DNA of 64,000 nt from Psammoneis japonica (GCA_008632985.1 QPGO01000160.1:62001-126000), one strand, 5' to 3'. Positions 14,847 through 45,773 are shown, numbered from the stretch's first letter. Made by a program: numbers and translations. The notes: a model not told the origin generated them from the letters alone.

Positions 14847-17736
14847 ATGAAATTTACATGCGGGAGACTCCTTATCCTCCTCGCAGCGACCTTTTGTAGT
14901 GGAGAAGGTGCAGTCGAGAGAGAACTATACAATTTTGAAGTAAGTGTCGATCCATGATTTCCGTGTTTCGTTTGCATTTCTGGTTATAATAGTAGGCATT
15001 CTGTGTTTCTCATCATTCGATGCTTGTGCAATATTCCTATTAGAAATGCAATAACGCGAATGGACAGCTGAAGTCTGCTGGAAACTGTGCCGTCTTGATG
15101 CTAGCAACGAATGGAAAGAAGAAAGTACTTCTCAACGTTCAAGATGCAAAAGCTGGCGTGTCGGGCAACACGTGCATTCTCGACGAGGGCGCGCTCGAGG
15201 TAGACGGAAGAGCCACGATTGACGGCAATTCAGTATTTGAGCCTCAGGCCATTGCTCCTGAAAACATTGAAGACATCACAACGGGAGTGGTGGATAGGAA
15301 CGCTGAGCTTTCTGAAGAGCTACAGGACGCGTTGGAAGCATCTGCCTTCTTTGCCGCTCAAACCTGTGATGCGACTCTTTCTTCTCTACCTGACGTTTTA
15401 GACTTGTCTGTTTATGGTGATAGAGATGCCTATATTTGCTTCGAGGATGGTCTTAAAATTACATCAGACGTCAAGGTAACCGGGGGAAGCAAGAACAGAG
15501 TGGTTTTCAACATCGAAGGTGGATTGTCCTTTGATGGATCCAAGGTTTTGGGTGAAGGATCCATCAAGCCCAAAGACATCATCTGGAATGTATTGAGTGG
15601 TGGTGTCGACCTCAACGACGCAACGATTGACGGTAGTATCATTGGCCTCACTAGCAAAATTAACCTGGTCAAAGCTGAACTGAATGGTCAAATTATCTCG
15701 GGATCTCTGGTTCGTCTCTTTTCCGGGTCGTCTGTCGTTTGCAATGAACGATCCCAACCACCAACTCCAGCTCCGACAGATCGCCCTGCCCCAAAGTTCG
15801 GGGCGTGTTGCAACGAGATGCGCTGTGTGATATCAAAAAAGGAGAGGTGTGAGAGAAAGGGAGGCGCCTATCAGGGCGACGAAACGACCTGTAACAGCAT
15901 CGACATTGAGTGTCCGAGGGTTGGAGCCTGCTGCTCTCCCACTGGAAAGTGTACAATCACGGGCAAGAGAGATTGCAATGTCCAAGGAGGGTCCTGGGGG
16001 GGATTTGGAAAGAGTTGTGAAGACGTAAAGTGCTCGACCCCGCCTCCTACACCGCAGCCAACAAGACCAGAACCCGGGGCCTGCTGCGGTCTTGACGACA
16101 GCGGAAAAGGGCTCTGCTTTCTTGCCGGAACTGGAGAAGCTTGCGCTTCACGAGGCGGGATCTGGAACGGGGTCGGCACAACTTGTGCGGAGACAAAATG
16201 CCCAGACGAGGAGACACCGCCACCAACTCCGAAGCCTTCGCAGCGTCCAACTCCACGCCCAACAAAACCACCGACTCCTCTGGGTGCATGCTGCATCGAG
16301 CGTAAAGGAAACGGCTTTTGTACCGAGACCACCGAAAAAGCATGCAAGCGAAGGCGTGGTGTCTTCCAAGGTGACAACACTGATTGCGAAACGAATTTGT
16401 GTCCCACTAAGCCCCCAACTCCTTCGCCTACTCAAAGGCCGACCAGACCCCCACCTGGAGCCTGTTGCCTCTCGAAAAAGGGGCGTTGCTTTACTGGATC
16501 CGAAGAGAAATGTGAAAGTAGGGGTGGAGTCTATCGAGGTCCTGGAACCGAATGTAGTGAAGACTTTTGTCCCAAGCCCACACGACGTCCAACTCCAATG
16601 CCGTCTCCACCACCAACTCCGGCTCCCACACCTCGACCGACGACGAAGCCGACTCCCGCCCCATCTCCTCGGCCCACGGCGAGGCCAACCCCGCGACCCA
16701 CTCCAAGGCCTACTCCGGCGCCAACCAGAGCTCCACCTGGGGCGTGCTGTATCGAAAGGAACGGTGAGTATCCATTTCGTTTGTAATGACGTGTCAAGCG
16801 ATTTGATTGTGGCTCTAACATTCAGTCGAACTTGACACAATGTATGATTATTCAGGCCGATGCTTCTTGATTGGAAATGAAGAGATATGCGAAAGACGAG
16901 GAGGTGTCTTTGGAGGCTCCGGGTCTGAATGTAATGACAAGTTTTGTCCCAAACCCACGCGACCCCCGACTCCCAGGCCGTCACCACCACCGCGTACCAG
17001 GCCGCCGACCAAGCCACCAACGAAACCACCGACCAATGGCGGATGCTGCTTGCCCAGCGGCAATTGTATTGAAACAACCATGGTTACCTGCAGATTCAAA
17101 GGTGGTACCTTCCAAGGCATCGGAACTAAATGTAAGGAAGACACGTGCCCTAAGAAGGGCGCTTGTTGCGCAAAATCGAGTGCCGCTGCCACAAACGTTC
17201 CTTGCATTGACGTTAGTGCAGAAACTTGCAAATACAAAAACGGCATCTTTCAGGGCGAAGGCACCGAATGCGACGCTAACAACAAATGTCCCTCCAAACC
17301 AGAGACTGGCGCATGCTGCTCTCCCGCCGGTGGGCAGTGCCTAAACCTAAGCGATACAATGTGTCGGGACAAGGGCGGCAAGTTTCTCGGAGGCGACACA
17401 TCTTGTGATAACGGAAGGTGTCCTGTCAACCCTGGAACAGGATGCTGTGTGTTTGGTGGAGGAAAATGCTTCATAGGGACGTCTGGAGAATGCATTAGAA
17501 AGGGAGGAAGGTACTTTTTAGAAGACGATTCGACTTGCAGCAATGTATATTGCTCAACTCCTGACAGGACGCCAAATCCAACCCCAGCTCATCGTCCCGT
17601 TCCTGGTCCAACTCATCGTCCCGTTCCCGGTCCAGCTCATCGTCCCGTTCCTGGTCCAGCTCCTTCTAACAAGCCCAAGAACATCTATAGGCAAAGCAGC
17701 GGAAGTGGAGGCGGCAGTGGCAGTAGTCGAGTTTGA
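14847..17736 (+). CDS. GACC-repeat gene A: signal peptide, RxL, ice-binding/choice-of-anchor-A-like beta-solenoid, 10 six-Cys modules with Pro/Thr linkers
   Basis: Exons 14847-14939, 15044-16763 and 16856-17736 (GT-AG, in frame). Leader MKFTCGRLLILLAATFCSGEG-AVEREL. Solenoid-like region LKSAGNCAVL...VVFNIEGGL...IIWNV...IDGSIIG. Confidence 0.85.
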
Positions 17737-19083
17737 AGCACTCACACTAGATTCAGACCAAACATAAACAAATAAATAATTGCCATCAAAGAATGCCTAC
17801 TGGAAACAGAAGCGAGTCTTTGGATAATGTCTAAGACATTTGTAGACGGTGGACGCCATTGCCAAATCGGCAAGGATCGAAGATGTCAGTCCAGGACTGG
17901 CGCATACACCAACAGATTTTTTTATGCTATTGAAGTAGCGACACTGACGGACAAACAATACGCGGTCAGAGACAACAACGGCATCAACATGGATTCGACA
18001 GAACAAAGACAAAACGAGAATCATCAACACAGACCCACCCCGCCTTACGTACACTCTTCGGTTTTTGCATTTTAAGCAACGCATCGGTAAAACTCGGATA
18101 CGTGTGCCAGTGTTCTGACTTCCGATTGGCATACAGACTGACAAGAGCAGATAATACGCGATGGAGCGCAAAACTCATCTCTTGAGCCAGTGCTGAGGTG
18201 AAACGAGTCAATACGGATCAACGCGGATGGAATAGCGGCAGTGTCGATGCACATCCTTTGCGCGGTATCCCCGTCGTTCTGGCTTCGTATGCCGCATGCT
18301 GCAAAGCAAACGATTTGTTTTCGTGCATTGGCCCTTGACAACGCGATTTGCGGTGTCAACCTGAGAAATCAGCATACCATGACGGCGCTCACTTACCGTG
18401 CTGCACCACAATCCTGCTGTGGCATGCCTGAGAGGGATGAGACGCACTGCTGACACGGCGGTGCCATCGTGATGCACCGACCATGTAACCCGATAAGCCG
18501 ATAGCCGATGCGGCTATTAGTTTTGATCTTCACCCAGCCATCGTCATATCGTCATCGTGCGTGCGTCCAGCCTCCAACCGAGATCAGATGGGCATATGGG
18601 GCGTTATTGAGGGCATAATTAAAAAATAGAATTAATTAAATATTGTGAGGCATAAAAGTCATTAGGGGAGGCACTAATAAAGGCTTTTAATTAAAGTATC
18701 AATATCGGGGCAATTAGGCATATATAATTCGGGCGAGAGATCTGGTGTGACTTTTTCGTGTGATAAATGCACTCACATTCTCAGCAATAATCCTCTCCCG
18801 CAGTTGCTGAGCAATGAACCAGGAGGCAACAGTTAGCACAAACTAGACCAAATCATCGGACAAGTCAGTGTACTATAGTACCTACCAAAGAAGTCATATC
18901 GGGATAAGTGTTTCAAGAGAATGATTTACGCCCTCGAGTCTGTCTTCAAAAACCCAAATTCTGGAAAGGCTTGAACGGTCACCTCATTTTCGTCTCACAA
19001 TTCATCGATCTATTCAACATTCGTCTCACAATTCATCAAGCTCTTCCGAAAAAAAGACACATCAACGAGATTGGTCGCTAACG

Positions 19084-21457
19084 ATGAAACTTTTTCTCAA
19101 GGGGTTGTTTCTCCTTGTAGCTTTTGCTCTCTCCTGCGAAGCTATCGGTAAGTTGTCGGCGTGCTTCAAACAGATTGATGGAACATTACGATGAGGAAAG
19201 AGGCGCTCACTTCTTCATTTTCCACATAAATCCTTGCATAAAGACGCTTCGAAAGGTTCGGGTGTCAGCGATGAGATCTTGACCGAGGTGCGTATAAATT
19301 TTGTCGTTGAAATACGTTATCGATATATTTTCTGATCATCACTCATATCCTTTGATGTGTATGGATATTATTTTGTTCAGAACGACCTTGGGGCCGACAG
19401 CGGTGGTGGTGAAGAAAGGAACTTAGCTGGGGTAAGTCTCTTTTGGTTTCGAAGAAGAAACATTCTCAGTTGCTACCTATCAACTTGAAAAGCCTTTGTG
19501 TCACTTCGCGAACTAACGGAAGCATTGCTTCTTTTTATACCTATCATAGTATACCGGAGCATGCTGCTTTGCCGACACCTGTCTTGTCTTGGAAGAATTC
19601 AAGTGTAGGAGGAAGGGGGGCTCTTTTAAGGGCTATGGCACCAAATGTCATAAGAAAATTTGCCCAGCGGCCTATGGAGGTTGCTGCTTCCGCGACGGAT
19701 CCTGCAAGGTTTACAAAAAGAACTACTGCAACGCTCTGGGCGGTACCTACCGCGGTCCTGGAACCGGTTGTTTCAACGCTAAGTGTGGGGCTTATTCGAC
19801 TCCTAATCCTACACCAAGTCCTAGTCGTCCTGCCGCTTGTTGCCTCAAATTTCAAAACAAATGCCGCTTTCTGAAGCAGCGCGTCTGTGAAAAAAGGGGC
19901 GGCCACATTGTCGGCAACAGGTGCAACCTATACACATGTCCAGCTGCCTATTCTGCCTGCTGCTTGCGCAATGGGTCCTGCAAGAACGTCAGAACAAAAC
20001 GCCAGTGCGACGATCGTTACGGATACTTCCAAGGGTTTGGTACTCAGTGCTATCCTGGAATTTGTGCTCCCAAGTCAACGCCGCCGCCGACCCCGCCTCC
20101 TACGCCACCCCCTTCACGTCCGGGTGCATGTTGCTTCAAAAATGAAAAATGCCGAGTTACCACAAAGGAATGGTGTGTTCTCGAAGGAGGATACTTTCAA
20201 GGCCCTGATACGACTTGCGAGAAGCATTGTCCTGGCGCCTGTTGTTTGCAAGGCGATTACCATTGCTTAGACAAGTCAGAGCACGAATGCGATCTTGTAT
20301 ATGGAGAGTTTCAGGGTACGGGAACGTCTTGCTATTATGGAATTTGTAAGAAGCCAACGCCGCCACCGACCCCGCCTCCTACACCACCCCCTTCACACCC
20401 GGGTGCCTGTTGCTTCAAAAATGAAAAATGCCGAGTTACGACAAAGGAATGGTGCGTCCTTGAAGGAGGATACTTTCAAGGCCCTAATACGACTTGTGAG
20501 AAGCACTGTCCTGGCGCTTGTTGCTTGCAGGGCGGTCACCATTGCTTGGACAAGTCGGAGCACGAATGCTACCTTAGCTATGGAGAGTTTCAAGGTACAG
20601 GAACGTCTTGCTATTATGGAATTTGCAAGAAGCCAACGCCACCACCTACCCCGCCACCTACGCCGCCTCCCAAGCCCGACATCGAAACAGGAGCTTGTTG
20701 CTTTCCGCATGGACAAAAATGCCGTGTCACCACTTATGAGTGGTGTCACCTCGAAGGCGGCCACTTCCAAGGCCCTCATACCACGTGCGAAAAACATTGC
20801 AAAGGTGCATGCTGCTTGTCTCGGGGTGTGCACACGACCATTTGCGTTGATGTATCGGAGCATGAATGCCGTAGCAAGTATGGCAAGTTTCAAGGAACAG
20901 ATACATCGTGCAAAAAACATGGGATCTGCAAGCAGGGTCCTTCCCCTTCGGGCTCGAGCTCAAGCAAGGGAAAGGGCGGCAGCAGCAGTGGTGGCAGTAG
21001 TGGTGGCAGCAGCGGTGGCAGTAGTAGTGGCAGCAGCGGTGGCAGCAGTGGTGGCAGCAGCGGAAGTAGCAGTGGCCATGCGCCACCCCACAAGCCAGAT
21101 AGCGAAACGGGAGCATGTTGTTTTAGGAATGGACAAAAATGTCGTGTCACCACTTATAAGTGGTGTCACCTTGAAGGCGGCCACTTCCAAGGCCCTCATA
21201 CCACGTGCGAAAAACATTGCAAAGGTGCCTGCTGCTTGTCTCTGGGTGCTCACAAGAACATTTGCGCTGACGTATCGGAGCACGAGTGCCGCAGCAAGTA
21301 CGGCAAGTTTCAAGGCACCGACACGTCGTGCCACAAACATGGGATCTGCAAGCAGGGTCCTCCCCCTTCGAGCTCCAGCGGGGGAAAGGGCGGTAGCAGC
21401 GGCAGCAGTAGTAGCAGCAGCGGCAACAAGCACAGGGGCCGCGGTAGTTCAAGTTAG
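19084..21457 (+). CDS. GACC-repeat gene B: secreted, 12 six-Cys modules, Pro/Thr and Gly/Ser linkers
   Basis: Exons 19084-19147, 19244-19287, 19381-19431 and 19550-21457. Signal peptide MKLFLKGLFLLVAFALSCEA; pro-peptide ends EERNLAG. Confidence 0.88.
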
Positions 21458-23759: not shown

Positions 23760-25858
23760 ATGAAAACTTTCCTCAAGGGGCTTCTTCTCCTTGTAGCTTT
23801 TAATCTCTCCTGCGAGGCTATTGGTAAGTGATCTACAAACTGCAGGCAAACCAGATGAGCTTTGCGACGATGAAGGATGCGCTCACTTGGTTTTTATTAT
23901 CCGTACTACTTTTAAGACGCTTCGAAAGGTTCGGAAGTAAACGAGGAGATCTTGACCGAGGTGAGTGTACCTTAATTCTTAAAATACTGCAGATGCACGG
24001 TTTTTGATACCCACTCATCATTTCCTTCATATCTATGGATATTTGCTCAGCCCGACCTTGGAGCCGACAATGCTGGTGGTGAAGGAAGAAAGTTAGCTGG
24101 AGTAAGTATCACATAGTTTGGAAGAAAGAGTATCAGTTGCTTTGCAAACTAACCACATTATTGCTTCATCTTAAACCTACCGCAGTATACTGGGGCATGC
24201 TGCTTTGCTGACCACTGTCTGGTCTTGGCAGATTACAAATGTAGGAAACAAGGAGGCCACTTCAAAGGATATCGCAGCAAGTGCGATAGGAAAGTTTGTC
24301 CGGCTGCCTATGGTGGTTGCTGCCTCCCGGGCGGCTCCTGCGTCATTTACAAGAAGAAATATTGCCGTACCTTGGGCGGTACCTGGCGCGGTCCCACAAG
24401 CAATTGCGCCAACGCGTATTGTGGGGGGTATTCAACGCCTAATCCTACACCAAGTCCTAGTCGTCCTGTTGCATGCTGCCTCAAGTTTCAAAACAAATGC
24501 CGCTTTCTTAAAACGCACATTTGTGAAAAAAGGGGTGGTCACATCGTCGGCAACAGGTGCAACCAATACACTTGTCCAGCTGCCTATTCTGCCTGCTGCT
24601 GGCGCAATGGAAAGTGCAAGAACGTCAAAACAAAATGGCAGTGCAACAAACGTTACGGAACTTTCAAAGGATTTGGTACTCATGTCATCCTGGAATCTGT
24701 GCGCACAAGCCAACGCCGCCACCGACCCCCAAAACGGGCGCCTGCTGTTTGCAGGGAGGCCATCATTGCCTAGATGTCACGGAGAACGAGTGCTACCTCA
24801 AGTACGGAACTTTTAAAGGAGTAGGGACGTCTTGCCGATCCGGAATCTGCAAGGTTCATCCCCCAAAGCCAACGCCGCCACCGAAGCCAAAGACGGGAGC
24901 TTGTTGTTTGCAAGGAGGCCATTATTGCCTGGATATAACGGAAAAGGAGTGCCAACTCAAGTACGGAACGTTTAAAGGAGTCGGAACGTCTTGCCGATCC
25001 GGAATCTGCAAAATTCATCCTCCCAAGCCAACGCCGCCGCCGGCACCCAGCCCACCCGGAGCCTGTTGCTTCAAAAAAGAGAAATGCCGCATCGCAGCGA
25101 AAGAATGGTGCATCCTGGAAGGAGGAGATTTTCAGGGCCCTGGTACTACTTGCGAGAAACATTGTAGCGGTGCATGCTGTGGAATAGGTGGCCAATACTG
25201 CGACAATGTCACGGAGCACGATTGCTACCTAAGGTCTGGAAAGTTTCACGGCAGGGGCACTTCTTGCCACCCTGATATTTGTGACCCAACGCCGCCACCG
25301 ACCCCGCCACCGCCTCCGACACCTCCTGGCGCTTGTTGCTTTAAGAATGGAGAAAAATGCAGAGTCACGACAAAAGAATGGTGCATTCTTGAAGGAGGAC
25401 ATTTCCAGGGCTCTGATACTACTTGCGAGAAGCATTGTCCTGGTGCCTGCTGCGGACTAGGTGGTCAATACTGCAATGATATCTCGGAGCACCATTGCTA
25501 CCTTCAGTTTGGAAAGTTTCTAGGTACAGAAACTTCTTGTCACCCTGACATTTGTAAGCCAACGCCACCCCCTACTTCACCTCCCACGCCAGATTTCGAA
25601 GGAGCATGTTGTTTCAAGGATGCTGGGAAAAAATGTCGATTCACCACTCAAAAATTGTGTAACCTTGAAGGTGGGCATTTCCAAGGCCCTCACACAACAT
25701 GCGAAACCGATTGCAAAGGTGCCTGTTGCTTGCGTCGTGGTCCCTACAGGACTATTTGCGCTGATGTCACGGAGATTGATTGTCGTCGCAAGTATGGCAA
25801 GTTTCAAGGCACTGATAAGACGTGTCAACAACCTGGAGTCTGCGAGGCCTACCCGTAG
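23760..25858 (+). CDS. GACC-repeat gene C (paralog of B): 12 modules, 1-bp frameshift near 24683
   Basis: Exons 23760-23823, 23917-23960, 24051-24101 and 24186-25858; same exon phases as B; pro-peptide ends EGRKLAG. Reads ACTCATGTCAT versus ACTCAGTGTCAT in gene D. An out-of-frame Gly/Ser tail follows the stop. Confidence 0.8.
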
Positions 25859-26241: not shown

Positions 26242-26372
26242 NNNNNNNNNNNNNNNNNNNNNNNNNNNNNNNNNNNNNNNNNNNNNNNNNNNNNNNNNNN
26301 NNNNNNNNNNNNNNNNNNNNNNNNNNNNNNNNNNNNNNNNNNNNNNNNNNNNNNNNNNNNNNNNNNNNNNNN
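26242..26372. other. Assembly gap (131 N)
   Basis: N run. Confidence 1.
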
Positions 26373-26510: not shown

Positions 26511-27205
26511 AACGAGAAGGTCGTAACCGAGGCGCGTTGAGTGCACACGGGAGCGTATATAGGGTCTCCCGCTGTGAGGATTTTATATATATAATTCGAC
26601 CGTTAACTACTTAGGGAGAGCTTTCATGTGCAAGACTGAAGTAAAAAAGTATTGCAAAAGAGTACTTTTGAACAGCAGGTTTACTTATAGGCGACGGTTT
26701 TTGGTGCCGACTGGCAGTCGCGCAATCATTCAAAATTATTAACGTATATTCATCACAGCACCTAAAGCCGTTATTACGATCCAAATTTAAAAACGTTGAT
26801 GGGATTGATTCAAATCCACCACGTAGAATTATACATACTGGTATAGTTTAACGGCAGAATCCTCGTAGTCCAAAGAGAGACAGTAAGTTTCTACTTACAC
26901 CCCTTCTACACGATTTTTATACTGACGTACACTTGTGTACATTTTGTACCGAGAAATTCTGTGCGACTCCGAACGGTGCGCGGTCGGGTTGATGGCTCAT
27001 AATTTTTCCGGAATAGATTTGGCAACTTTCAGAAGAAGTAACCCGAAAGTTCTCTGAAAGTTGATGTGAATATAACATCACATGTCTGCACACACACATG
27101 ACCTTGAAACGCGCCAGAATTTTTACATCATCAGATTCACCACCACCCGCAAGACTTCTGCGACACCGTGCTAAAGATCGAGACTGGAGACACGGCACGG
27201 AGGAG

Positions 27206-29870
27206 ATGTCGTCTCACAAAAAAGCAGACGCAGCCACACAGCTGTCACAGAAGCCACCCGCAACAACAGAGCAGCCATGCAGCATGCCCACTTCGACCCT
27301 TGAGGTGCCAATCATGAAGGCGTCTGGGGCCCCTTCCACCACAAGTGGCGACAAGTCTGCAATCAAAACGTTTGACGCGTTTCAAGACAAAAAACAAGAC
27401 AAGCCGTTTCATGGATTGGAGGAACGTCATGTGGATGGACACCACCTCAGGACACTCATGATGCGCTTCAGCAAGTTCTTGTCAGATGAGCCCATCTGTC
27501 GGCATGACAATCTCTCCAACGGGCTGGCAGGAATTGATGGAAAGCAGCAAATTTTTGGAAAGGTCAAAGAAGCGCTGAAAATGAAGTTCCCCAAGCACCC
27601 TGACTGGGAAGACGAGGACAAGTGGCACAAGCCTCTGTTCAAAGACGTGGCAAAGGCCACTGACAAAGCCAACCTCCTCAGCATGGAGTGTTCTGACAAA
27701 AGGACTTTGCCCCTGGTTCCAAACGTGTCTTCAGAATGTGTTTGAGCCAAGCAGCGAAATGCCATTCTTACGTCGGATGGAAATTCAATGTTGAGACGTG
27801 AGAATGGTGCATTCGCAAATGACATCGAGACGTTGCTTCTTGCTCTTGTTCTGCAATGCAATTGTCCAATGATGAATGATGGCCCTCTTCAGCAGCATTG
27901 CTGGATTTTGATGGGTGCCATGGCTGCTGGACGTGGAGGGGAAGTGAGGTGTCAACGGCACGATGAATGGTTCTGGGATTTATTTTATGAGAATTTGGAA
28001 GCAACGTGGTGCGAGCCGAAGACTGTGGATTTGCATGGGCTCCTCTTCCCACCAAACAAGAAGTCTTGTCTGTTTGATCTCTACCATGCTTTTGCGTGTT
28101 TCCATTCTTGTGAGAAAGGTCTCTGTTGTCCAGATGGCATGGAGAAGGAGCTCCACAAGTGCACTTTTCCAGACTTGTGGAGCGTGAGCGACAAGCATGT
28201 TGCCGCCAAGTTGACTGCTGTTGTTCGAAACAAGGTCAACCCGGTTCTACAGAATGATTGTTCTTCAAAGTCTGTTCGAGTTGGTGTGGCTACATTCTTG
28301 AATTCGCATCGAGGAGTGTCAGTTGAAGAAGTGGACGCTCGAGTTGGATGGGCGCCCGGAGCTGCCAATGGCAAGACACACAAACGAATTGCACTGCAGC
28401 TTGCTCTTCCAGCAGCAAACGCAATGATGGGCTGGGATGATGCCACTGGCAAAAAATTTGCGCCGAATCTTGAATGTCTTGGTGGCCACGCGCAAGATGA
28501 TGTCGAACGGCTCATTGAAAAACTGCATGTGACATCTGACACCCTCAAACAATTTCCACCAGGCGGGGAGCTTCGTCCGTTCTTGCGCTCCTGCACGGCT
28601 GCCATGATTCAGCATCATGCTGAAGTTGCAAAAGAACTCTGCCAGAGCCATCAGATTGTGCGCACCTTGGAGCGTGCTGCGAAGGAAGCGAAGATTCGTG
28701 ATGGCGATGCCACTGACACATCACAAGTTCTTCGAATCTGGGGATTGAGAACAGATGCAAGCTTTCGAGACCGCAATCCAGACCTGTCGAGCGAGATGAA
28801 CCTTGCTGCACAACTGAAACAGCAGAATGAACTGTTGACACGTGTGTTGTTGGCACATGACGCTCAACGTGCCGAGATTGCAGATCAGTCTCAGACCCTT
28901 CGTAACTTGGAGATGGCTCAGCTTGAGGCCAACCGGTCCAGCAGGAAAAGGCCCATTGAACTCCTGTCATCAGACGAGGAGGAAGGTTGCATGATGGATT
29001 TGGTGGAGGGGACAAAATCCAATCAAGACGACATGATCAACAGTGACGTCATTGATGCAAACGTCGCCTCCACTCCAAACGGTGCGGCTGCCAACTCTGT
29101 GAGAACACCAGATGCTGCTGATGACGCGCCGGCTGCTTCTCGACCTCGCATTGATTCTGACGAGTCAGCGGCTGCGACTGAGCCTGTGGCGGCCTCGGCG
29201 CCAAAGCCAAAACCTTGCATTGCCGCAATGCTGCTCTCAACACGGTTTGCAAGTGCTGAGTCTTCCAAGAAGAAGAAGAAAAAGAAGCTGACACTGCAGG
29301 AGAAAGTGGATGGCTTGGTGAACAGCACAGGCGCAGGAGTGTCTTTGCATGTGTTGCTCACTTGGTTCAAGCAGCATGGACACCTTTCATCGCCGTCAAA
29401 GGAGCGGCTTTTGCAGCTGCGGTTCCCGAACAAGGAGGCAGAGCCTCAGAAATTTAAAGCCGCCACGGAGCTTCTGGAACACATTGTGACTGATGACCAG
29501 TGGCACACGATCCAACTTCATGACGACAAGTCCTTGGCTTTTCACAATGTTTGTCATGCCATGCAAAATGCATGCCTGGATGCGATGAGGAAGATGGAAG
29601 TAGACGCCGGCATGAAAAAGCCACTGGAGAACAAGAAGAAGGAACAAACTCAGCCTCACTTTGTAGGTCTTGGTCTTTGAGTTACAACATACAAGAAAAA
29701 GCAGAATGTGTCATCCATCGGCGAGAAGCAAACGAGCGCCTTGGCAGGATTTGTGAAGAAGGTTGCATCCAAAGCCACCGGCACTAGTCCCAAAAAACCC
29801 GTGAACCCACATGCAAAGAAGCAGGCCAAAGTAAAATGCATGTCAAGTTATTGTGTGTTACAGTGCGAAT
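27206..29870 (+). pseudogene. Tyrosine recombinase (Crypton-like), copy 1, with in-frame TGA stops at 27743 and 29678
   Basis: ORFs 27098.. and 27788.. share a frame. Motifs GRGGEV (RxxE), SSKSVRVG (HxxR box) and RVGW, with His (CAC 28379-28381) where the catalytic Tyr is expected. Start position approximate. Confidence 0.65.
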
Positions 29871-30010
29871 AGAAGCTTGCACTGTAGAAACATCTGTTTC
29901 AAATTTAGCACCGTGCAACTGCTGTGCGTCCGGTTGATTCGGACGAAGCAAGTGTGCTTTTCTCTCTGACGACTCCAAAACGTGCCAATCATCAAGATGC
30001 AAGTAGACCA
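29830..30010 (-). pseudogene. Degenerate duplicate of the RusA 3' end
   Basis: Aligns with ~30175-30340 (CGTCCGGT.GATTCGGACGAAGCAAG, TGCCAATCATC). Confidence 0.7.
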
Positions 30011-30237: not shown

Positions 30238-30876
30238 TCAAATTTCATTCAATGCAACGACTGTTCGTCCGGTAGATTCGGACGAAGCAAGCACCTTTTT
30301 CGCCGACAACTCTGATGCTTGCCAATCATCTTGATACAATGTTGTGTTCAAGCTGTCCAAAACAAACTTGCAGAGATTGTCAATGTCTCCTGCATCCTTG
30401 AGACTCTTCCCAGGAAAAGCAAATTCAATCCGAGCCTTCAACAAGACACCGCCACGGAACTTTGGTGCTGAATCTAGTCTGGATCGGCAGAGAGCTGATG
30501 CCACGCTTGCAAACTCTTTCTCATCAGCTTGGTTTGGATTGCAAACGTTTCCATTCCACCCACGCTTTGGTCTTGACTTTGGTGTTGGCTTTCCGACAAC
30601 GTCAAATTCAATGGAAGATCCGGTGCATGAAAATGGGGGCATGTTCGAGACGGAGAATTTGGGCGATCGGATCTTTCGAGGACGCCCTCGTTTCTTCTTC
30701 CTTGATGGTTCACCTTTGCCAGCACTGCCAAATCTTGATGATGCCTGCAGGTTTGGAGCAACAGCCACGCTCTCAAAGTCTTTTCCACCTTCGTGGTCGC
30801 TTGCGCTGTCTGCAACCATTGCGTCGTCGGCAGTTCCTCCTTCAAAACTTCGCTTCTTGACCATTCTGCCATCCAT
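30238..30876 (-). CDS. AT-hook plus RusA-family Holliday junction endonuclease
   Basis: KKKRGRPRK AT-hook; GKPTPKSRPK; DIDNLCKFVLDSLN; LYQDDWQ; GRTVV. The RusA DxDNxxK...D...DD catalytic pattern is present. Confidence 0.85.
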   Translation of the reverse strand: MDGRMVKKRSFEGGTADDAMVADSASDHEGGKDFESVAVAPNLQASSRFGSAGKGEPSRKKKRGRPRKIRSPKFSVSNMPPFSCTGSSIEFDVVGKPTPKSRPKRGWNGNVCNPNQADEKEFASVASALCRSRLDSAPKFRGGVLLKARIEFAFPGKSLKDAGDIDNLCKFVLDSLNTTLYQDDWQASELSAKKVLASSESTGRTVVALNEI

Positions 30877-31239
30877 TGCACTTTGGGCATTCAGGAAACT
30901 TCTCTACAGTCCTCCTCAGTGCAGCAGGAGAAAAGGCTTTCCGTGTGAGGATTCGCGTGCGATGGCAACATGTTTCCATCGCTCATCGCGTGAGCTTTCG
31001 TGTTTCGATTGATTTTTGATTTTTTTCAAATTTCAATTTTTCCGGAATAGATTTGGCAACTTTCAGAAGAAGCAACCCGAAAGTTCTCTGAAAGTTGATG
31101 TGAACATAACATCACATGTCTGCACACACACATGACCTTGAAACGCGCCAGAATTTTTACATCATCAGATTCACCACCACCCGCAAGACTTCTGCGACAC
31201 CGTGCAAAAGATCGAGACTAGAGACACGGCACGGAGGAG

Positions 31240-32560
31240 ATGTCGTCTCACAAAAAAGCAGACGCAGCCACACAGCTGTCACAGAAGCCACCCGCAACAA
31301 CAGAGCAGCCGTGCAGCATGCCCACTTCGACCCTTGAGGTGCCAATCATGAAGGCGTCTAGGGCCCCTTCCACCACAAGTGGCGACAAGTCTGCAATCAA
31401 AACGTTTGACGCGTTTCAAGACAAAAAACAAGACAAGCCGTTTCATGGATTGGAGGAACGTCATGTGGATGGACACCACCTCAGGACACTCATGATGCGC
31501 TTCAGCAAGTTCTTGTCAGATGAGCCCATCTGTCGGCATGACAATCCCTCCAACGGGCTAGCAGGAATTGATGGAAAGCAGCGAATTTTTGGAAAGGTCA
31601 AAGAAGCACTGAAAATGAAGTTCCCCAAGCACCCTGACTGGGAAGACGAGGACAAGTGGCACAAGCCTCTGTTCAAAGACGTGGCAAAGGCCGCTGACAA
31701 AGCCAACCTCCTTGGCATGGAGTGTTCTGACAAAAGGACTTTGCCCCTGGTTCCAAACGTGTCTTCAGAATGTGTTTGAGCCAAGCAGCGAAATGCCATT
31801 CTTACGTCGGATGGAAATTCAATGTTGAGACGTGAGAATGGTGCACTCGCAAACGACATCGAGACGCTGCTTCTTGCTCTTGTTCTGCAATGCAATTGTC
31901 CAATGATGAATGATGGCCCTCTTCAGCAGCATTGCTGGATTTTGATGGGTGCCATGGCTGCTGGATGTGGAGGGGAAGTGAGGTGTCAACGGCACAATGA
32001 ATGGTTCTGGGATTCATTTTATGAGAATTTGGAAGCAACGTGGTGCGAGCCGAAGACTGTGGATTTGCATGGGCTCCTCTTCCCACCAAACAAGAAGTCT
32101 TGTCTATTTGATCTCTACCATGCTTTTGTGTGTTTCCATTCTTGTGAGAAAGGTCTCTGTCGTCCAGACGGCATGGAGAAGGAGCTCCACAAGTGTACTT
32201 TTCCAGACTTGTGGAGCGTGAGCGACAAGCATGTTGCCGCTAAGTTGACTGCTGTTGTTCGAAACAAGGTCAACCCGGTTCTACAGAATGATTGTTCTTC
32301 AAAGTCTGTTCGAGTTGGTGTGGCTACATTCTTGAATTCGCATCGAGGAGTGTCAGTTGAAGAAGCGGACGCTCGAGTTGGATGGGCGCCCGGAGCTGCC
32401 AATGGCAAGACACACAAACGAATTGCACCGCAGCTTGCTCTTCCAGCAGCAAACGCAATGATGGGCTGGGATGATGCCACCGGCAAAAAATTTGCGCCGA
32501 ATCTTGAATGTCTTGGTGGCCACGCGCAAGATGATGTCGAACGGCTCATTGAAAAACTGC
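31240..32560 (+). pseudogene. Tyrosine recombinase copy 2, truncated
   Basis: Near-identical to copy 1 including the internal TGA; homology stops abruptly after GAAAAACTGC at 32560. Confidence 0.7.
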
Positions 32561-33912
32561 GGCCGATCGACAACCACCGCTCCCTCCGACAATGGCGCTT
32601 TTGGCCGTTTTGACCGGTGCGACACCGCCTCCCGACCCCCACCTTGCTTGACAGTGTTGTGAGCCATTGGGTCGTGCCATGTGAGTGAGCCCTGGCTCTG
32701 GAATGGGTCAGAATGACTCAAAATGTGGTGAGTTCTGATTCTCGTGGAATCGTGCGTCTTTTTCCCCGTTCTCGTTCGCAATGGCGCTCACCTTGAACCT
32801 CCTTGTCCCGTGTCTTGATGTGTGGGAATCGAAGATGGGGATGTCGAAGTCCACGGGTCTACGCCGTCGCCGTCACCATTTTTGGCTCCGTCACCGTTCC
32901 ACCATGGCTTGCTGCTTCTGTCCCGGTCCATGCCGTACCACCATGGCGCTGCCTCCGTTCTCCAAGCTTCTGCCACGATTTGTATGGACCGGACCAGTCA
33001 CTCGATCCCAAGCTCCGACTTTCTACCATTGCTCATGCCGATTTGCAGCCTGCTTTTGTCGTCCTGCTCCGTGGAACCACCAGACTGCCTCTCTTCCATC
33101 TGTCCTCCCTGCCCGCCGTTGACGATCCAGGCACCCCAAGTTTTGACCCTACTGGTGAGTTTACATTGGTCGTTTGCTCGTTGTTGCTTTGTATTTGTAG
33201 AAAAGTATGTTCTTACCTCCTTGTGTTGTTCCATTTCACCGCAGATGTGGTCATTTTGCAGGCGCAGGTGCCGTGCTTCTCTGTGCAAGTTTTTGTGCTC
33301 ACCAATGTTGTCTTGCTTTGTTCTTTTTATTGAAGATATGGTACTAACTCAAATAGATCTTTTCTCTCTTTTGCGCCCTCTTGCAACATCGTTGGATTGC
33401 TGTCTTTGCGTCTCTCTCCGGCACTTGCATCATTGTCGGTCTCTTCGCTCGTGCTTCGCTCGCGTCGTCTCTTCTCCACGCTCGCTTCCCCTATTAATTG
33501 TACGTACGTAATTTCTACATAAATGCCTCATATATAGAGTACCAAATTACATAGTAACGGCCGTTAACGGTTTTTAGAATTACTTAGGCCCACCCACACT
33601 CGAGCAGTGGGAGTCCATGCAGTTTTTCCCGGTGTTGTCTGTCCCTCCATCCCTCCTGCCTACGCCTTTGACAGAGTCATTGAAGCCTTTTCTGCTTTCC
33701 ACAAGCCTAGAAGAAAGGGCAATTGAAAATACTTATAGGGAAAATAGCAATAAGTAATTGACGGTCACAGTCTTAGCTGCTTTCGGTCTAAGACAAATAA
33801 CTGTTTCACGATACCGTTCCCTCATTTTTTTTGTCTTGTTTCTTCTCGTTCACTAGAATCTCTGAAAGAACCGACACCTACCAATCGCTTCATCAAAAGG
33901 ATTGATGGAAAG

Positions 33913-36563
33913 ATGAAGACCTTCCTCAAGACGTTGTTTCTCCTTGGCTCTTTTGCTCTCTGCTGCGAGGCAATTGGTGAGTGATCTGCAAACTTCAGAG
34001 CGTGATTGAGCTTTGCGATGATGAAAAAGATGTACTCACGCATTCGTTTCGTTATCCGTACTTACAACTATAGACGCTTTGGAGAATTCGGATGTGATCG
34101 AGGAGACCTTGGTCGAGGTAAGTATCGCTTCGCCATTGACATTCTGGACACCTCTATATGATCCGAGTCATCACTCATCATTTCCCTCTGTGGACTCTGG
34201 CTCAGCCCGACCTCGGCGACGAAAGTGCTGGTCCTGACAGTTGGACTGGAAGGAAACTAGCCACTGTAAGTCGCAGATATTTTAATCTATGAAATATTCA
34301 CAGCTGTGCTGATAGACTTAACCAACCGCGCATCATTGTCTTATTTCTCCCCTCAGTATACCGGAGCGTGCTGCTTTGCCGACAATTGCCTCGTCTTGAC
34401 AGAGCATAACTGTCGGCAAAAGCGAGGATCATTGAAAGCCTTCGGCACGAAATGTAGCAGGAAAGTTTGTCCCGCCGCCTATGGTGCTTGCTGCCTTCCG
34501 GACGGCTCCTGCAAGATATTCAAGAAGAATTTCTGTCATACCAAACGCGGTACCTGGAAGGGTCCCGGAAGCAATTGCAAAAAAGCTCATTGTGGGGGGT
34601 ACAAACCGCCTAGTCCTCCTTCTGGGTATAAACCACCTACTCCTTCCGGGTACAAACCACCTAGTCATACCCCAAGCCATGGCAGTGTTGTCGCATGTTG
34701 CCTCAAGAATCAAAACAAGTGCCGCTTTCTTAAGAAGCACCTTTGTCTAAAACAGGGCGGCCACGTCGTTGGTAACAGGTGCACCCTGAAGACCTGTCCC
34801 GCTACTTTTTCTGCCTGTTGCATGCGCAATGGAACATGCAAGAACGTCAGAACTAAAAAGCAGTGCGACGATCACTACGGAACTTTCAAAGGATTTGGTA
34901 CTCAGTGTCATCCTGGAATCTGTACGCACAACTCGACGCCGCCGCCGCCGACGCCGCCAAAGACGGGCGCCTGCTGTTTGCGAGGAGGCCATTTTTGCGT
35001 AGATGTCACGGAACATGAGTGCTACGACAGCGGTGGAACGTTTAAAGGAGTAGGAACGTCTTGCAGCTCTGGAATTTGCAAGATTCATCACCCCAATCCA
35101 ACGCCGCCACCGCCACCGACCCCCAAAACGGGCGCCTGCTGTTTGCCAGGAGGTGATCATTGCATGGATGTCACGGAACATGAGTGTCACCTCAAGTATG
35201 GAACGTTCAAAGGAGTAGGAACGACTTGCAGTTCTGGAATCTGCAAGATTCATCATCCCAAGCCAGATGTCGCTACGGGAGCTTGTTGTTTCAAGAATGG
35301 GGAACCATGCCGAATCACCACCGCAAAGTGGTGTCACCAAGAAGGCGGGCATTACCAAGGCGATGATAGCCTTTGCGAAAAAACGTGCCCCGGTGCGTGC
35401 TGTCTACAAGATGGATACTACTGTTTGGATGTGTCGGACTTTGAGTGCTACCTCAAGCATGGAACGTTCAAAGGAACAGAAACGTCATGTCGACCCGGAA
35501 TCTGCAAGTTTCATCACGTCACGCCAACTCCACCACCACCACCGACCCCAAAGACGGGCGCCTGCTGCCTGCAAGGGGGTTACTATTGTGTGGATATCTC
35601 GGACCATGAGTGCTACGACAGCGGTGGAACGTTTAAAGGAGTAGGAACGTCTTGCAGCTCTGGAATTTGCAAGATTCATCACCCAAAGCCAACGCCGCCG
35701 CCGCCACCAACCCCAAAGACGGGCGCCTGCTGTTTGCCGGGAGGTGATCGTTGCATGGATGTCACGGATTATGAGTGCTACCTCAAGTACGGAACGTTCA
35801 AAGGAGTAGGAACGACTTGCATTTCTGGAATCTGCAAGATTCATCACCCCAAGCCACCAACGCCGACCCCAAAGACGGGCGCCTGCTGTTTGCCAGGAGG
35901 TGATCGTTGCATGGATGTCACGGATCATGAGTGCTACCTCAAGTATGGAACGTTCAAGGGAGTAGGAACGACTTGCATTTCTGGAATCTGCAAGATTCAT
36001 CATCCCAAGCCACCAACCAAGACGGGCGCCTGCTGTTTGCCCGGAGGTGATCATTGCTTGGATGTCACGGATCATGAGTGTTACCTCAAGTATGGAACCT
36101 TCAAGGGAGTAGGAACGACTTGCAGTTCTGGAATCTGCAAGATTCATCATCCCAAACCACCAACCAAGACGGGCGCCTGCTGTTTGCCAGGAGGTGATCA
36201 TTGTTTGGATGTCACAGAGCAAGAGTGCTACCTCAAGTACGGAACGTTTAATGGAATAGGGACGTCTTGCAGTACCTAAGTTGCAAGATTCCTCCCCCCA
36301 AGCAAGATGTCGAGAATGGAGCGTGTTGTTTCAAGAATGGAGAAAAATGCCGCGTCACCACGAAGGAATGGTGTCACCTGGAAGGTGGGAATTACCAAGG
36401 CCCACACACAACGTGTGAGAAACATTGTCCCGGTGCATGCTGCTTGCAAAGTGGTCACTACAAGAGCCTTTGTATTACTGCCTTGAAGCACGAATGCGAT
36501 GGCAATTACGGCATATTCAAGGGCACAGATAAGTCGTGCGATCACCCTGGGATTTGCCATTAG
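33913..36563 (+). CDS. GACC-repeat gene D (paralog of B/C): 15 modules, His-rich, 1-bp frameshift near 36277
   Basis: Exons 33913-33976, 34074-34117, 34206-34265 and 34357-36563; pro-peptide ends TGRKLAT; near-identical internal repeats GACCLPGGD..CKIHHPKP. Confidence 0.85.
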
Positions 36564-41746: not shown

Positions 41747-44700
41747 ATGACCTTCATTAGCAAGGGGGTGTTTCTCCTTCTCATCGTTTCTTGCTGTGAA
41801 GCATCAGGTAGGCAACCTGTTGAGGGACATTCGAAATGACGGAAATTGATATCATGGATTTGATTGCTCACCAAATTCTTGTTTTTTTTGTATTGCTATC
41901 TATGCAGACCTCGCAACGAAGCTGGGGCTCAATGATGAAGTGCCAGAGAATGAATCCAGGTTGCTGCAAATACTGCCACTTAAATCTGGGGTAAGTCTGA
42001 TAAAGTACGAAACAAGAAATTAATTTGCTTTGATATCTAACTTTGTTTTCGTTTCGTGGACGATCGATGATGAATTGAATCACTCTATAGCTCGACAAAA
42101 TTGGAGCCTGTTGTTTCCCCGATTTCCCCGAGTTTCCTGGTATCTGCGGAATCGCCAGCAAACTGGAATGTCTAGAAGCAGGTGGAAAGTTCCAGGGAGG
42201 AAACACCGAATGCTTCGACGACACCTGTCCCACGGACACCACACCGGCTCCAAATCCGCCTCCTACTCCAGAGCCTACACAAGCACCTGATTTTGATAAT
42301 GGAGCCTGTTGTATTCCTGATGCAGACCCCGGCGAAAACTGTAAAGTTACGAAGACTGCAGCAATCTGCGAGAGGAGATTCTCAGGCGTGTGGCAAGGAT
42401 TTGGATCGTCTTGCAGACAAATTTCTTGTGATGCTCTTACGCCAGCTCCAACCCCGCTCGATGTAGATCCTACTCTCAGCCCGACTCCATTTAACGTCGA
42501 TCCTACCACCAGTCCGACTCCTTCGGAAGGTGAAACAGGTAGCTGCTGTGTGGTTGATGGTTCTTGCGTCGATGACATTGACCAAGCCACCTGCGAGTTC
42601 AGCGGCGGAGAATTCAATGGCAGCGGAAGTGTGTGCGCTGATGCAAGCTGTGAAGCAAAGCCTGGGGCATGCTGCAAGCCTGACGGTTCATGTGAACGGG
42701 CCAAGAATAGTAGAAGGTGTGCTAGAGATTTTGGTGGTATCTTCCAAGGACCCGGCAGTGATTGTGATGACTTTGATGTCATTTGCCCCATTGAATCGAC
42801 TCCAGCGCCAACTCCATTTGACGTCGTCACGGGAAGCTGCTGTTTCCCTGACGGTTCTTGCTCCGACGACGTTGATGAAACTAACTGCAATCTTAGCAAT
42901 GGAGAATATAATGGCGACGGGAGCACCTGCATTACTTCCAACTGCAGGGTACAGCGTGGAGCATGCTGTACCGATACAGGAGCGTGCGCCGAGACGAGAA
43001 ACAAGAAGCGATGCACAGTGGACTTTAATGGTATCTTTCTAGGACATGGCACCAGCTGCGACGTCGAGGGAGCGACCTGTCAGGATCCTTCTACTTCATC
43101 ACCTACGCCTCTGAACGTTGATCCAACCCTTTCCCCTACCCCTCAGGCGGATTCAACGCCATCGCCTACGCCTCAAGAGGTCATCACGGGTAGCTGCTGC
43201 TTACCGGACGGAGCTTGCATTGAAGGAGTTGATGAAGCAAATTGCAACCTCAGCAATGGAGAATACAATGGAGATGGAAGCACGTGTGCTAATTCCAATT
43301 GCCAGGTACAGCCTGGTGCATGCTGCATTCCCGAAACTGGCGAATGTGAACAATCCGATAACGAGCAAAGTTGTTTTACAGACTTTGGCGGTTCCTTTCA
43401 GGGTCCTGGTACCAGCTGCGATGATGAGAACGTTGTCTGCCCAGTCGACCCAACGCCAAGCCCAACGACCAGTCCTACAACCTTGTCTCCGACATCAAGT
43501 CCAACGAGGTCTCCTACAACACCCTCCCCCACTGGTTTAGACGTTCAGTTCGGTGCCTGCTGTTTTCCAGACGGATCCGTTAAGTAATCCCGCTCTTATG
43601 TTGTTTAGCTTCCATAGTTCGTCAATCCTCACAACTCCTTGTTAACCCATTTCGTTTCTACTTAGTGTGGGGATCAGATTGATGAAACCACATGCGAAAT
43701 CGACGGAGGTATCTACAGCGGGGATGGAATCACGTGTGACAATGTCAGATGTCGGCCACAGCCTGGGGCGTGCTGCCTTCCGGATGGAGGCTGCATTGAG
43801 CGAAGGAGTGCTACTCGGTGCGAAAGAGATGATGGAGAATTCCAAGGAGCCGGAACCTCTTGTGATGATGAAGATATTGTCTGTCCTGTTCCACCCAGCG
43901 GGGCTTGTTGTTTGCTGGACGAAGACGGCACTTGTACCTCTACCACCGAAGCGGAATGTGAATCAGAGAATGGTCTCTATCAGGGGGACCAAACTGAATG
44001 TGATTTATCAACCTGTCCGATCCCATCTCCAAGCCCGACCTCTGCAACGCCTAGCCCGACTTCACAACACCGAGTCCTTCTGTTGCCACCCCTAACCCGA
44101 CCGTCGCAACGCCGAATCCGACCGTTTCAACCCCTAGCCCAACAGTCACAACGCCCAATCCGACCGCGGAAACCCCAAGCCCGACTCTCGTTACCCCAAG
44201 TCCGACACCAAAGCCCACGAGAGAACTGAGCGCTTGCTGCCTCGAGAGCGGTGAATGCACTCTGCTCACTACGAGGAAAAGGTGCGAGATCACGTTCGGC
44301 GGTAAATTTCAAGGCAAAGGTAGCGTCTGTGAAGACGACACATGCGCAATTACTCCCGCTCCAACGCCACTTGATGTTGATCCAACACTGAGCCCAACGC
44401 CTTTCAGCACCAATCCTGGCAACGGTACACTGAGTCCAACAGTTACAACGGCAAGTCCCACGCCAATGCCCACCAGAGCAAAATCTGCCTGCTGCTTGTC
44501 TGATGGCGAATGCATTCAGGTCACTACGAGGAAAAGGTGCGAGAATAGGTTCGGTGGTACATTTCAAGGTAGAGGTAGTGTCTGCGAAGACAACACCTGC
44601 GCAATTACTCCCGCGCCTACACCACCTCTTGACGTGAATACACCCAGTCCAACACCAATGCCGACCAGACGACCAAAATCTGCCTGCTGCTTGTCTGATG

Positions 44701-45773
44701 GTGAATGCATGCCTGTCACTACGAGGAAAAGGTGCGAGAACAGATTTGGTGGAATATATCAAGGAAGAGGCAGCGTCTGCGAAGACAAAACTTGCGCAAT
44801 TACTCCATCGCCTACACCCCCTCTTGATGTGGATACACCCAGTCCAACACCAATGCCGACGAGACGTCCAAAGTCTGCCTGCTGCTTGTCTGATGGTGAA
44901 TGCATGCCCGTCACAACGAGGAAAAGGTGCGAGAACCGGTTTGGTGGTATATATCAAGGAAGAGGAAGCGTATGCGAAGACAACACCTGCGCATTTACTC
45001 CTTCTCCAACTGCAACTCCAAAAACTCCTTCTCCGACACCACTCGATGTGATTGACCCAACCCCTCCCCCCACACCACCCACAGAGAAGCCAGGTGCCTG
45101 CTGCTATACATTTCCCAGCAAGGGCGGCAGCAAGGGAGGTGACAAGAGCAAATCCAAGGGCGGAAGCATGGGAGGCGACAAGAGCAAATCTAAAGGCGGT
45201 AGCAGCAGCAGTAGCAAGGGAGGCGACAAGAGCAAATCCAAGGGCGGAAAAGGCAAAGGTGGAAAGAAAGGATCATCCAGCAGTAAAGGAGGCAGCTCCA
45301 GTAGCAAAGGAGGAAAAGGCAAAGGTGGGTGGTGGAGAGATCGCGAGCTTACCTGGAATTTGTCTTGGAATAGAGACCGGAGATGGGATACGCATTTGAA
45401 CACAAAGCGGTACCGGACTGGAGAATGTAAAATTGTCCCAGAGTCCCAATGCTATGGAAAATGGAACGGAGCCGGGAGTACTTGCAACTATCTTACATGC
45501 CCAGCATCCGATATCGGAAAAGGCGGTTCCAAGGGCCGTTACTCCAAGGGCCGTTATTCCAAGGGCCACTCCAAAGGAGGCTCAAAGGGCCACACCAAGC
45601 TCTTCTCCAAGGGTCACTCTAAAGGCTATTCCAAGTTTTTCTCCAAGGGCGGCTCCAAGGGTCACTCCAAGGGAAGGTATTACCGTTATTTCAACAAGCC
45701 TAGCTCTAAGGGTGGAAAGGGAAAAGGTGGGAGTAGGAGCAAATCAAAAGGAAAAGGTGGAAAGAGAGCATAA
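41747..45773 (+). CDS. GACC-repeat gene E: 16 modules (N-terminal ones acidic), Thr/Pro linkers, Lys/Ser/Gly-rich C-terminus
   Basis: Exons 41747-41807, 41908-41990, 42091-43578 and 43666-45773. Signal peptide MTFISKGVFLLLIVSCCEAS; ESRLL (RxL); 1-bp frameshift near 44061; SKG repeats at the end. Confidence 0.82.

Follow-up and report, generated by a model that had tools for sequence, protein, structure and literature searches.

The 64,000-nucleotide stretch of Psammoneis japonica DNA analyzed here (GCA_008632985.1 QPGO01000160.1:62001-126000, one strand, 5' to 3'), which we call the window, holds a cluster of five genes between positions 14847 and 45773. All five lie on the + strand, each has GT..AG introns whose junctions were read from the sequence, and each encodes a predicted secreted protein carrying tandem copies of a six-cysteine unit, the GACC module. 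A preliminary description, made from the sequence without knowledge of its origin, had noted a five-gene cluster in a common orientation, and our gene models agree with this: there are five + strand genes, and the modules occur on the + strand only.

Gene 1 (14847..17736) has three exons (14847-14939, 15044-16763, and 16856-17736) and encodes 897 amino acids (aa). Gene 2 (19084..21457) has four (19084-19147, 19244-19287, 19381-19431, and 19550-21457) and encodes 688 aa, and gene 3 (23760..25858) repeats this four-exon layout, with its stop at 25858. The exons of gene 4 (33913..36563) are 33913-33976, 34074-34117, 34206-34265, and 34357-36279. Those of gene 5 (41747..45773) are 41747-41807, 41908-41990, 42091-43578, and 43666 onward, giving a product of ~1245 aa if read through. 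Genes 2 to 4 thus share one exon plan: a 64-nucleotide (nt) signal-peptide exon, two small exons of 44 and 51 to 60 nt, and a long module exon. Gene 5 has the first-exon phase and layout of genes 2 to 4 plus an extra intron inside a module (43579-43665). The DNA upstream of genes 2, 3, and 4 is also alignable (18700-19100, 23350-23760, and 33500-33913), and the shared sequence includes a conserved block that lies ~150 nt ahead of the ATG. The promoters were therefore copied along with the genes.

The GACC module and its arrays

We scanned all six reading frames of the window with a regular expression for the module. This returned 57 complete CC-C-C-C-C modules, or 60 when the first residue was relaxed, and all 60 lie on the + strand between 15797 and 44993. 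The same scan found none on the − strand and none in the rest of the 64 kb. Every one of the 60 has exactly six cysteines, and when aligned (alignment A2), the six cysteines and one glycine are invariant, with a mean column identity of 38%. The spacing is CC-x4..11-C-x7/8-C-x11..14-C-x3..6-C in a module of about 38 aa (unit, ~36 to 44 aa). A GA start is present in 44/60 modules and a G-x-[FYWLV]-x-[GEA] loop in 57/60.

Applied to the spliced models, the same expression found 63 modules, compared to a mean of 6.0 and a maximum of 16 in 200 residue shuffles. With the interrupted copies included, genes 1 to 5 carry 10, 12, 12, 15, and 16 modules, respectively, for a total of 65 (60 intact and 5 interrupted in the unspliced DNA). 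Gene 3 has one module interrupted by a 1-nt deletion, gene 4 has one interrupted by a frame break or stop, and gene 5 has one that takes up a long Gly/Ser/Lys insert; the remaining two, in genes 1 and 5, are split by introns and are intact after splicing. The linkers between modules are Pro/Thr rich, and gene 2 also has Gly/Ser stretches. At the DNA level, Tandem Repeats Finder reported arrays with periods of 279 nt, which spans two beads and a linker, and of 159, 165, 147, and 195 nt, and the expansion of the modules therefore took place in situ.

By heuristic reading, all five proteins start with an M-K/T leader with a hydrophobic core, and none of the five has a further hydrophobic segment beyond it. 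No Pfam (E ≤ 0.1) or NCBIfam model covers the module arrays. We considered known Cys-rich families, for which the only Pfam rows were Trypan_PARP and TopoV_HHH, both below the cutoff, and Perm-CXXC. The last of these reaches its cutoff (26.1 bits versus 23), but no single stretch passes on its own.

Taken together, these data establish a module family that is real and well delimited. The preliminary description had counted about 65 modules distributed as 10+12+12+15+16, and exactly these numbers come from the spliced models plus the interrupted copies. Its six-cysteine consensus also stood, except that the third gap, given as six or seven residues, is in fact seven or eight. The signal peptides it had reported appear as the hydrophobic leaders of all five proteins, its Pro/Thr or Gly/Ser spacers were recovered, and the tandem DNA arrays bear out its view of an expanded family. 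That the proteins are of a secreted, extracellular type is likewise in line with the predicted signal peptides, the lack of a transmembrane segment in the five proteins, and the Pro/Thr linkers.

Gene 1 and the Trailin architecture

The product of gene 1 consists, in order, of a signal peptide, a choice-of-anchor A (CAA)/ice-binding-like head, an array of 10 GACC modules separated by Pro/Thr linkers, and a tail (HRPVPGP/Gly-Ser). Its spliced frame is open, with the second intron splitting module 6. The predicted signal peptide, again read heuristically, begins MKFTCGRLLILLAATFCSGEG. The head is encoded at 15185..15712 (+) as a CAA/pAdhesive_15 domain (PF20597), where residues 48 to 223 of exon 2 match the family with an E value of 2e-6 (28.4 bits versus a cutoff of 23.8). 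The related model TIGR04215 scored 23 bits, below its cutoff of 29, and PF11999 was also below cutoff. No match to PF20597 was found in genes 2 to 5 at E ≤ 0.1.

We built an AlphaFold2 (AF2) model of the head using 11 bacterial CAA proteins. The mean predicted local distance difference test score (pLDDT) was 63.6, with a confident region at residues 85 to 225 (mostly >80). All 27 Foldseek matches of this model at E ≤ 1e-3 are DUF3494 ice-binding proteins, with a best TMq of 0.61. As modeled, the head of gene 1 is a predicted beta-solenoid like those of the DUF3494 ice-binding proteins.

This domain order can be compared to that of the Trailins, which are defined by the CAA domain in the available text of a preprint on diatom adhesion (bioRxiv 10.1101/2023.03.06.531300); the CAA domains of diatoms are reported there to be of bacterial origin. 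The same text gives CaTrailin3 of Craspedostauros australis a mass of 95 kDa, a signal peptide, and a CAA domain, together with eleven imperfect repeats in which six Cys are conserved and to which no known domain corresponds. It was located at the raphe slits and in adhesive trails, and repeats of its type are said to occur in other diatoms, including non-motile centrics, and in some fungi (bioRxiv 10.1101/2023.03.06.531300). Like CaTrailin3 as described, gene 1 has a signal peptide, an ice-binding-like CAA domain, and six-Cys repeats (10 rather than eleven), and the sizes agree (897 aa and 95 kDa). By sequence, gene 1 fits the published architecture of CaTrailin3. Genes 2 to 5, in contrast, have no CAA domain and differ from Trailins by the definition given in the preprint. 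CaFAP1, a mucin-like cell-surface glycoprotein of C. australis, also alternates Pro/Thr/Ser-rich and Cys-rich regions, a likeness that we can draw from its description in the preprint (bioRxiv 10.1101/2023.03.06.531300).

We also asked whether the window could be the Trailin2/3/4 locus of C. australis itself. The three epitope peptides published in the portion of the preprint available are absent from the window even when up to 5 substitutions are allowed (≤5), and this candidate was rejected.

Leaders and tails of genes 2 to 5

In genes 2 to 5, the signal peptide precedes an acidic leader of ~21 to 34 aa with an RXL motif just before the first bead, as we call the folded module; in genes 2 to 4, the motif falls at the same exon end. 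The leader of gene 2 ends in RNL, and it is followed by 12 modules arranged as A/B pairs, along with two stretches of Gly/Ser(/Lys), with a tandem array of 279-nt period at 20072-20661. The leaders of genes 3 and 4 both end in RKL. Gene 3 then has 11 intact modules and one broken, and gene 4 has 12 intact modules followed by one cut by a stop, with 147/165-nt arrays. The leader of gene 5 contains RLL and precedes 16 modules, among them the one that holds the long Gly/Ser/Lys insert.

A stretch of ~30 aa that follows the signal peptide, ends in RXL, and is proteolytically removed is typical of diatom biosilica-associated proteins and has been termed the “RXL domain” in the section of the literature that we drew on (PMC5525289). 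Genes 2 to 5 resemble such RXL-domain, silaffin-like proteins in having a signal peptide and a short leader ending in R-x-L. The resemblance may extend to the C terminus in gene 5, whose last 250 aa consist of 21% G, 18% K, and 17% S and include three regions with at least 5 Lys in 14 aa. Pentalysine clusters are described as silica-targeting signals of silaffins (PMC9650480, as excerpted), and gene 5 may resemble these proteins in its Lys/Ser/Gly-rich tail with pentalysine-like clusters. Clusters of this type (5 Lys in 12 to 14 aa) number three in gene 5 and one in gene 3, within a module; genes 1, 2, and 4 have none. Unlike silaffins and cingulins as described in the parts of these two papers available (PMC5525289, PMC9650480), the bulk of the proteins here is made of Cys beads and Pro/Thr linkers.

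Genes 3, 4, and 5 each contain one frame break as assembled, at ~24685, ~36275, and ~44050, respectively; the preliminary description mentions none of these breaks. In gene 3, alignment places a 1-nt deletion near 24685 (CA-TGT compared to CAGTGT in genes 2 and 4), and beyond the stop at 25858 there is a Gly/Ser tail in another frame. Gene 4 has an in-frame stop at 36277-36279, with two further modules (36318-36557) in another frame. The frame shift of gene 5 (~44040-44056) lies inside a 42-nt Pro/Thr repeat.

Bacterial relatives of the module

A profile of the 60 window modules was run against 1.84 billion representative proteins. It matched 7795 proteins at E ≤ 1e-3, of which 3788 passed E ≤ 1e-10 and 935 passed E ≤ 1e-30. 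All 150 best matches have a Lys content of 0 to 2.9%, compared to 5.6 to 9.1% in the window proteins, and the five of these 150 that were examined are bacterial in appearance. Pfam was run on 34 of the 150; other families, mostly linked to the surface or to secretion, were found in 10 of them (PKD, DUF11, FlgD_ig, Por_Secre_tail, dockerin, and LTD). In an NCBIfam scan of five top matches, one (P0150) was an exosortase-dependent XDD4 protein.

Genome contigs were located with a single bacterial protein as the query. The protein P0114 is encoded in a metagenome-assembled genome (MAG) of Planctomycetota, and of its two relatives, one is encoded in a MAG of Phycisphaerales and the other in a second MAG of Planctomycetota. 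MAGs of these two groups are also the source of the best matches that carry a name. The window module profile found 59, 12, and 63 modules in these three genomes. At E ≤ 1e-5, it matched 43/121 genomes sampled from the order Phycisphaerales, compared to 5/201 genomes sampled across the phylum. When the window modules were compared with 26 Planctomycetota modules by hhalign, the result was 98.8% with an E value of 5e-17 over 39/40 columns. Judged by these profile comparisons, the window module and a repeat found in surface proteins of Planctomycetota, mainly Phycisphaerales, are homologous; this repeat is absent from Pfam and NCBIfam. The preliminary description had named GACC repeats as common in secreted proteins of Planctomycetota (Phycisphaerae) and had proposed a module profile search. 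The hhalign result and the 43/121 genomes of the order confirm this link, and the search returned thousands of bacterial-type relatives and no Pfam or NCBIfam family.

The Planctomycetota repeat, like that of the window, forms long tandem arrays in secreted proteins. However, the Planctomycetota proteins are Lys poor, carry bacterial sorting or adhesion domains, and have mostly short linkers, whereas introns interrupt the window genes, and their proteins have signal peptides of eukaryotic type, RXL leaders, and linkers that are long and Pro/Thr rich. With gene 2, a word-based search gave 18 matches, all bacterial in appearance and the best at 31% identity, and an Atlas search gave scores of 0.79 to 0.81 to Planctomycetota clusters, which we take at the level of a lead. 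The word-based search with gene 1 gave 6 weak matches, some by way of linker words; P0004 was matched through its modules only and not through the CAA head. The head itself found no relative among longer proteins in this kind of search, and two metagenome scans found no relatives.

The gene 1 combination of head and modules was looked for in bacteria as well. PF20597 occurs in 23/121 genomes of the Phycisphaerales order sample, in open frames of 274 to 533 aa. Among 12 bacterial CAA loci, there was a single regular-expression module match, in 1 of the 12, and the CAA domain was not fused to GACC arrays; PF20597 was also absent from the 34 Pfam-scanned top module matches. We found no CAA-GACC fusion that could serve as a template for the gene 1 architecture among the bacteria searched. 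These bacterial CAA and GACC counts include one unpublished genome (G300/L011).

A tree of modules was built from 39 columns and 209 rows, in which the 60 window modules were joined by single modules drawn at random from 149 of the 150 top matches, one per match; one top match without a regular-expression module was left out. Only 4/206 branches were well supported, and the tree cannot settle origin or direction. The window modules do cluster in it, with 14 label changes compared to 52.1 in shuffles (0/500 as low), but they do not form one clade. The preliminary description had raised a possible horizontal acquisition, and our data do not establish it: the tree is poorly supported and has no readable direction, the introns are spliceosomal, the composition is eukaryotic and Lys rich, and the fold seems also to occur in animal iRhoms (below). 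A horizontal origin of the beads is plausible.

Predicted fold of the module and the iRhom homology domain

The structure prediction that the preliminary description had suggested for the module gave a confident result. An AF2 model from 69 aligned modules had a pLDDT of 90.3, with two strands followed by a helix and a third strand. This high-confidence prediction makes the module a compact unit of the beta-beta-alpha-beta type.

The only solved look-alikes that we found are the homology domains of iRhom1 and iRhom2 (PDB 9xy4, 9q7y, and 8snl). When profiles were run against PDB sequences, iRhom was matched with E values of 1.4e-4 (alignment A4), 2.1e-4 to 1.4e-3 (A2), and 0.015 to 0.075 (bacterial modules only), and the next unrelated match ranged from 0.08 to 0.4 across the profiles. 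For iRhom1, the value with A2 was 2.6e-4. The iRhom match takes in all six Cys, aligned within a single stretch of 36 residues; upstream of it is a second copy, which is split. Foldseek with the module model returned three rows, all iRhom, with a TM-score of 0.75, a root mean square deviation of 2.1 A over 38 columns, 34 to 37% identity, and an E value of ~1.3; two of the three VIA rows align elsewhere. The E value is poor because the domain is tiny. Given this E value and the rows that align elsewhere, the data suggest, and do not go beyond suggesting, that the module is homologous to a sub-domain of the iRhom homology domain.

The iRhom homology domain itself seems to contain two GACC-like six-Cys units, the first split by an insertion (9xy4_A construct residues 101 to 157 and 201 to 236; 8snl_B residues 571 to 606). 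In the excerpt of the 2024 report available (PMC11248996), this domain is described as having 8 disulfides, as contacting ADAM17, and as “unprecedented,” no similar structure having been found. Unlike the window modules, it is a single domain of ~200 aa between two transmembrane helices of a rhomboid pseudoprotease; the window modules are free standing and tandem and occur in soluble secreted proteins. Neither a rhomboid family (Pfam) nor a hydrophobic segment besides the signal peptide was found in the five window proteins.

Neighboring genes and an insertion within the cluster

The cluster is interrupted by several features that are not in the preliminary description. An assembly gap of 131 N (26242..26372) lies ~400 bp downstream of gene 3. 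It is followed, between genes 3 and 4, by an insertion (27001..32613) made up of a duplicated element and a RusA-like gene. The two element copies (27001-29680, with open reading frames [ORFs] from 27065, and 31035-32613, with ORFs from 31222) are 98% identical over the 300 nt compared. One copy has ORFs of 226 and 644 aa, and the other has shortened ORFs of 185 and 277 aa; no Pfam family was matched by the element ORFs. The gene for a RusA-like Holliday-junction resolvase (30238-30903, −; PF05866, E 3.4e-10) sits between the copies. Together, the element and this gene look like a mobile or viral insertion within the cluster. From the shortened element copy to gene 4, the stretch at 32700-33500 is strongly T rich/pyrimidine rich (AT skew of −0.197 in the 32- to 34-kb bin) and contains long ORFs of low-complexity appearance.

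Genes 4 and 5 are separated by two genes unrelated to the cluster, one for a cyclophilin (36797-37470, −) and one for a dual-specificity phosphatase (37668-38498, +). The region at 38700-41300, from the phosphatase gene to gene 5, has many overlapping ORFs of 120 to 230 aa on both strands. A gene for a GT47 exostosin-type glycosyltransferase lies 8 kb upstream of the cluster (5732-7036, +); that it might be tied to glycosylation of the linkers is only a thought.

The neighboring genes of the window are ordinary eukaryotic ones, encoding a Vps41-like propeller, GT47, cyclophilin, dual-specificity phosphatase, dienelactone hydrolase, CRAL-TRIO, and HA domain proteins. For an adjacent DUF1365 protein, the nearest Atlas cluster is 100% Eukaryota and most commonly Bacillariophyta (score, 0.94), which may be taken as soft support for a diatom source. 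We considered whether the cluster could be bacterial contamination or a bacterial gene island and rejected both, given the GT..AG introns (two of which split modules), the common exon structure, the Lys-rich composition, and the eukaryotic neighbors.

Discussion

Thus far, we have described five genes whose predicted products alternate Cys beads with Pro/Thr-rich linkers. The family is one of diatom Cys-rich, Pro/Thr-rich secreted matrix proteins made from a bacterial-type repeat that is still unnamed. From the sequence, we read the cluster as a family that expanded locally in a diatom-type alga and whose proteins are secreted to the extracellular matrix, probably as glycosylated beads on a string; an adhesive or cell-coat role is likeliest for them, with gene 1 as the trail-type member. 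We give this reading a probability of roughly 0.6. An adhesive or wall role is plausible because gene 1 has a CAA head and gene 5 has a silaffin-like tail; by analogy, gene 5 is a possible silica-anchored member.

In our proposed model, import into the endoplasmic reticulum would be followed by removal of both signal peptide and RXL leader, and each bead would be locked by three disulfides. The Pro/Thr linkers would be hydroxylated and O-glycosylated into stiff, mucin-like spacers. The product would be a long, protease-resistant, and extensible tether joining the cell surface to mucilage and substratum, in which Lys-rich tails may hold the silica wall and the CAA head may hold the substratum.

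Several points weigh against this reading. The CAA match of gene 1 is modest, with an E value of 2e-6, a sub-cutoff score for TIGR04215, and a pLDDT of <50 in the first 84 residues of the head model. The putative identity of the gene 1 and CaTrailin3 modules is drawn from the written description of CaTrailin3 in the preprint, and the window is not one of the C. australis loci as published there but another locus or another species. We found no close relative, the best being at 31% identity and bacterial. The RXL motif is only three residues long, and total RXL counts are near compositional expectation; the REL of gene 1, six residues past the predicted cleavage region, may be chance. The frame breaks of genes 3 to 5 may mark pseudogenes or assembly indels, with the N gap nearby. 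Lastly, the proteins are predicted from gene models, as are their disulfide pairing, glycosylation, and location.

An alternative is that the proteins are mainly silica-wall components, i.e., organic matrix of the frustule or girdle like the silaffins and cingulins, in which RXL is cleaved in the secretory pathway, Lys/Ser stretches bind silica, and the beads form an insoluble casing. The signal peptides and acidic leaders of genes 2 to 5 are as expected for this from the excerpted description of RXL domains (PMC5525289), the tail of gene 5 can be compared with the pentalysine signals of silaffins (PMC9650480), gene 2 has Ser/Gly/Lys stretches, and the preprint text extends the six-Cys repeats of CaTrailin3 to centric diatoms that do not move. 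However, clear Lys clusters are found only in gene 5, downstream of its frame break, and gene 1 has none and carries a CAA adhesive-type head instead. The long Pro/Thr linkers resemble the composition of adhesive material as given in the preprint (bioRxiv 10.1101/2023.03.06.531300), and no Cys-bead proteins are mentioned among the silaffins and cingulins in the available portions of PMC5525289 and PMC9650480. We regard a mainly silica-wall function as rather unlikely. We also considered that the beads are binding modules, lectin-like or protein binding, that serve in recognition of or defense against surface bacteria or phages with the same module or in polysaccharide capture. The near-invariant G-x-aromatic-x-G loop (57/60) would suit such a function, as would the dockerin, PKD, and lamin-tail domains of the bacterial relatives and the part that the same putative fold takes in the ADAM17 contacts of iRhom in the report excerpt (PMC11248996). 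Yet no member has a known ligand, and the sequence between cysteines varies strongly from bead to neighboring bead, a pattern that suits a scaffold better. We hold binding modules to be improbable.

The frame breaks raise a different possibility, namely, that much of the cluster is decaying and that genes 3, 4, and 5 are pseudogenes left by rapid tandem duplication, with only genes 1 and 2 functional. Each of the three has one break, the Gly/Ser tail of gene 3 is out of frame, and a repeated element has been inserted within the cluster. Against this, the frames are otherwise open over 1.2 to 2.3 kb with all Cys kept, two of the three breaks lie in or beside tandem repeats, and the N gap is 400 bp from gene 3; assembly indels are common in such places. 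Decay of this extent seems to us quite unlikely.

A broader and more tentative idea takes in the relatives of the module outside the window. The GACC bead could be one ancient extracellular fold that Planctomycetota use in surface proteins and diatoms in matrix and adhesive proteins, and to which the iRhom homology domain of animals also belongs. That domain would be a fused bead pair with insertions, and the cluster would be the free-standing eukaryotic form. Gene 1 would be a chimera, joining a bead array shared with, or taken from, bacteria of the phycosphere to a CAA adhesive head. We consider this possible but on the whole doubtful.

The bead is present in thousands of bacterial surface proteins and has no Pfam or NCBIfam model, and naming it and solving its structure would annotate many proteins. 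The iRhom link, which is weak but repeated, offers a possible answer to where a domain under medical study came from, one for which the report excerpt gives no structural relatives (PMC11248996). The finding would gain weight if either this link or the Trailin-3 identity of gene 1 is true. Underwater adhesion of diatoms and the priming of biofilms rest on a handful of known proteins. A locus with one Trailin-3-like member and four CAA-less paralogs provides concrete candidates for diatom adhesion and lets Cys beads be tested as a general building block of the diatom matrix.

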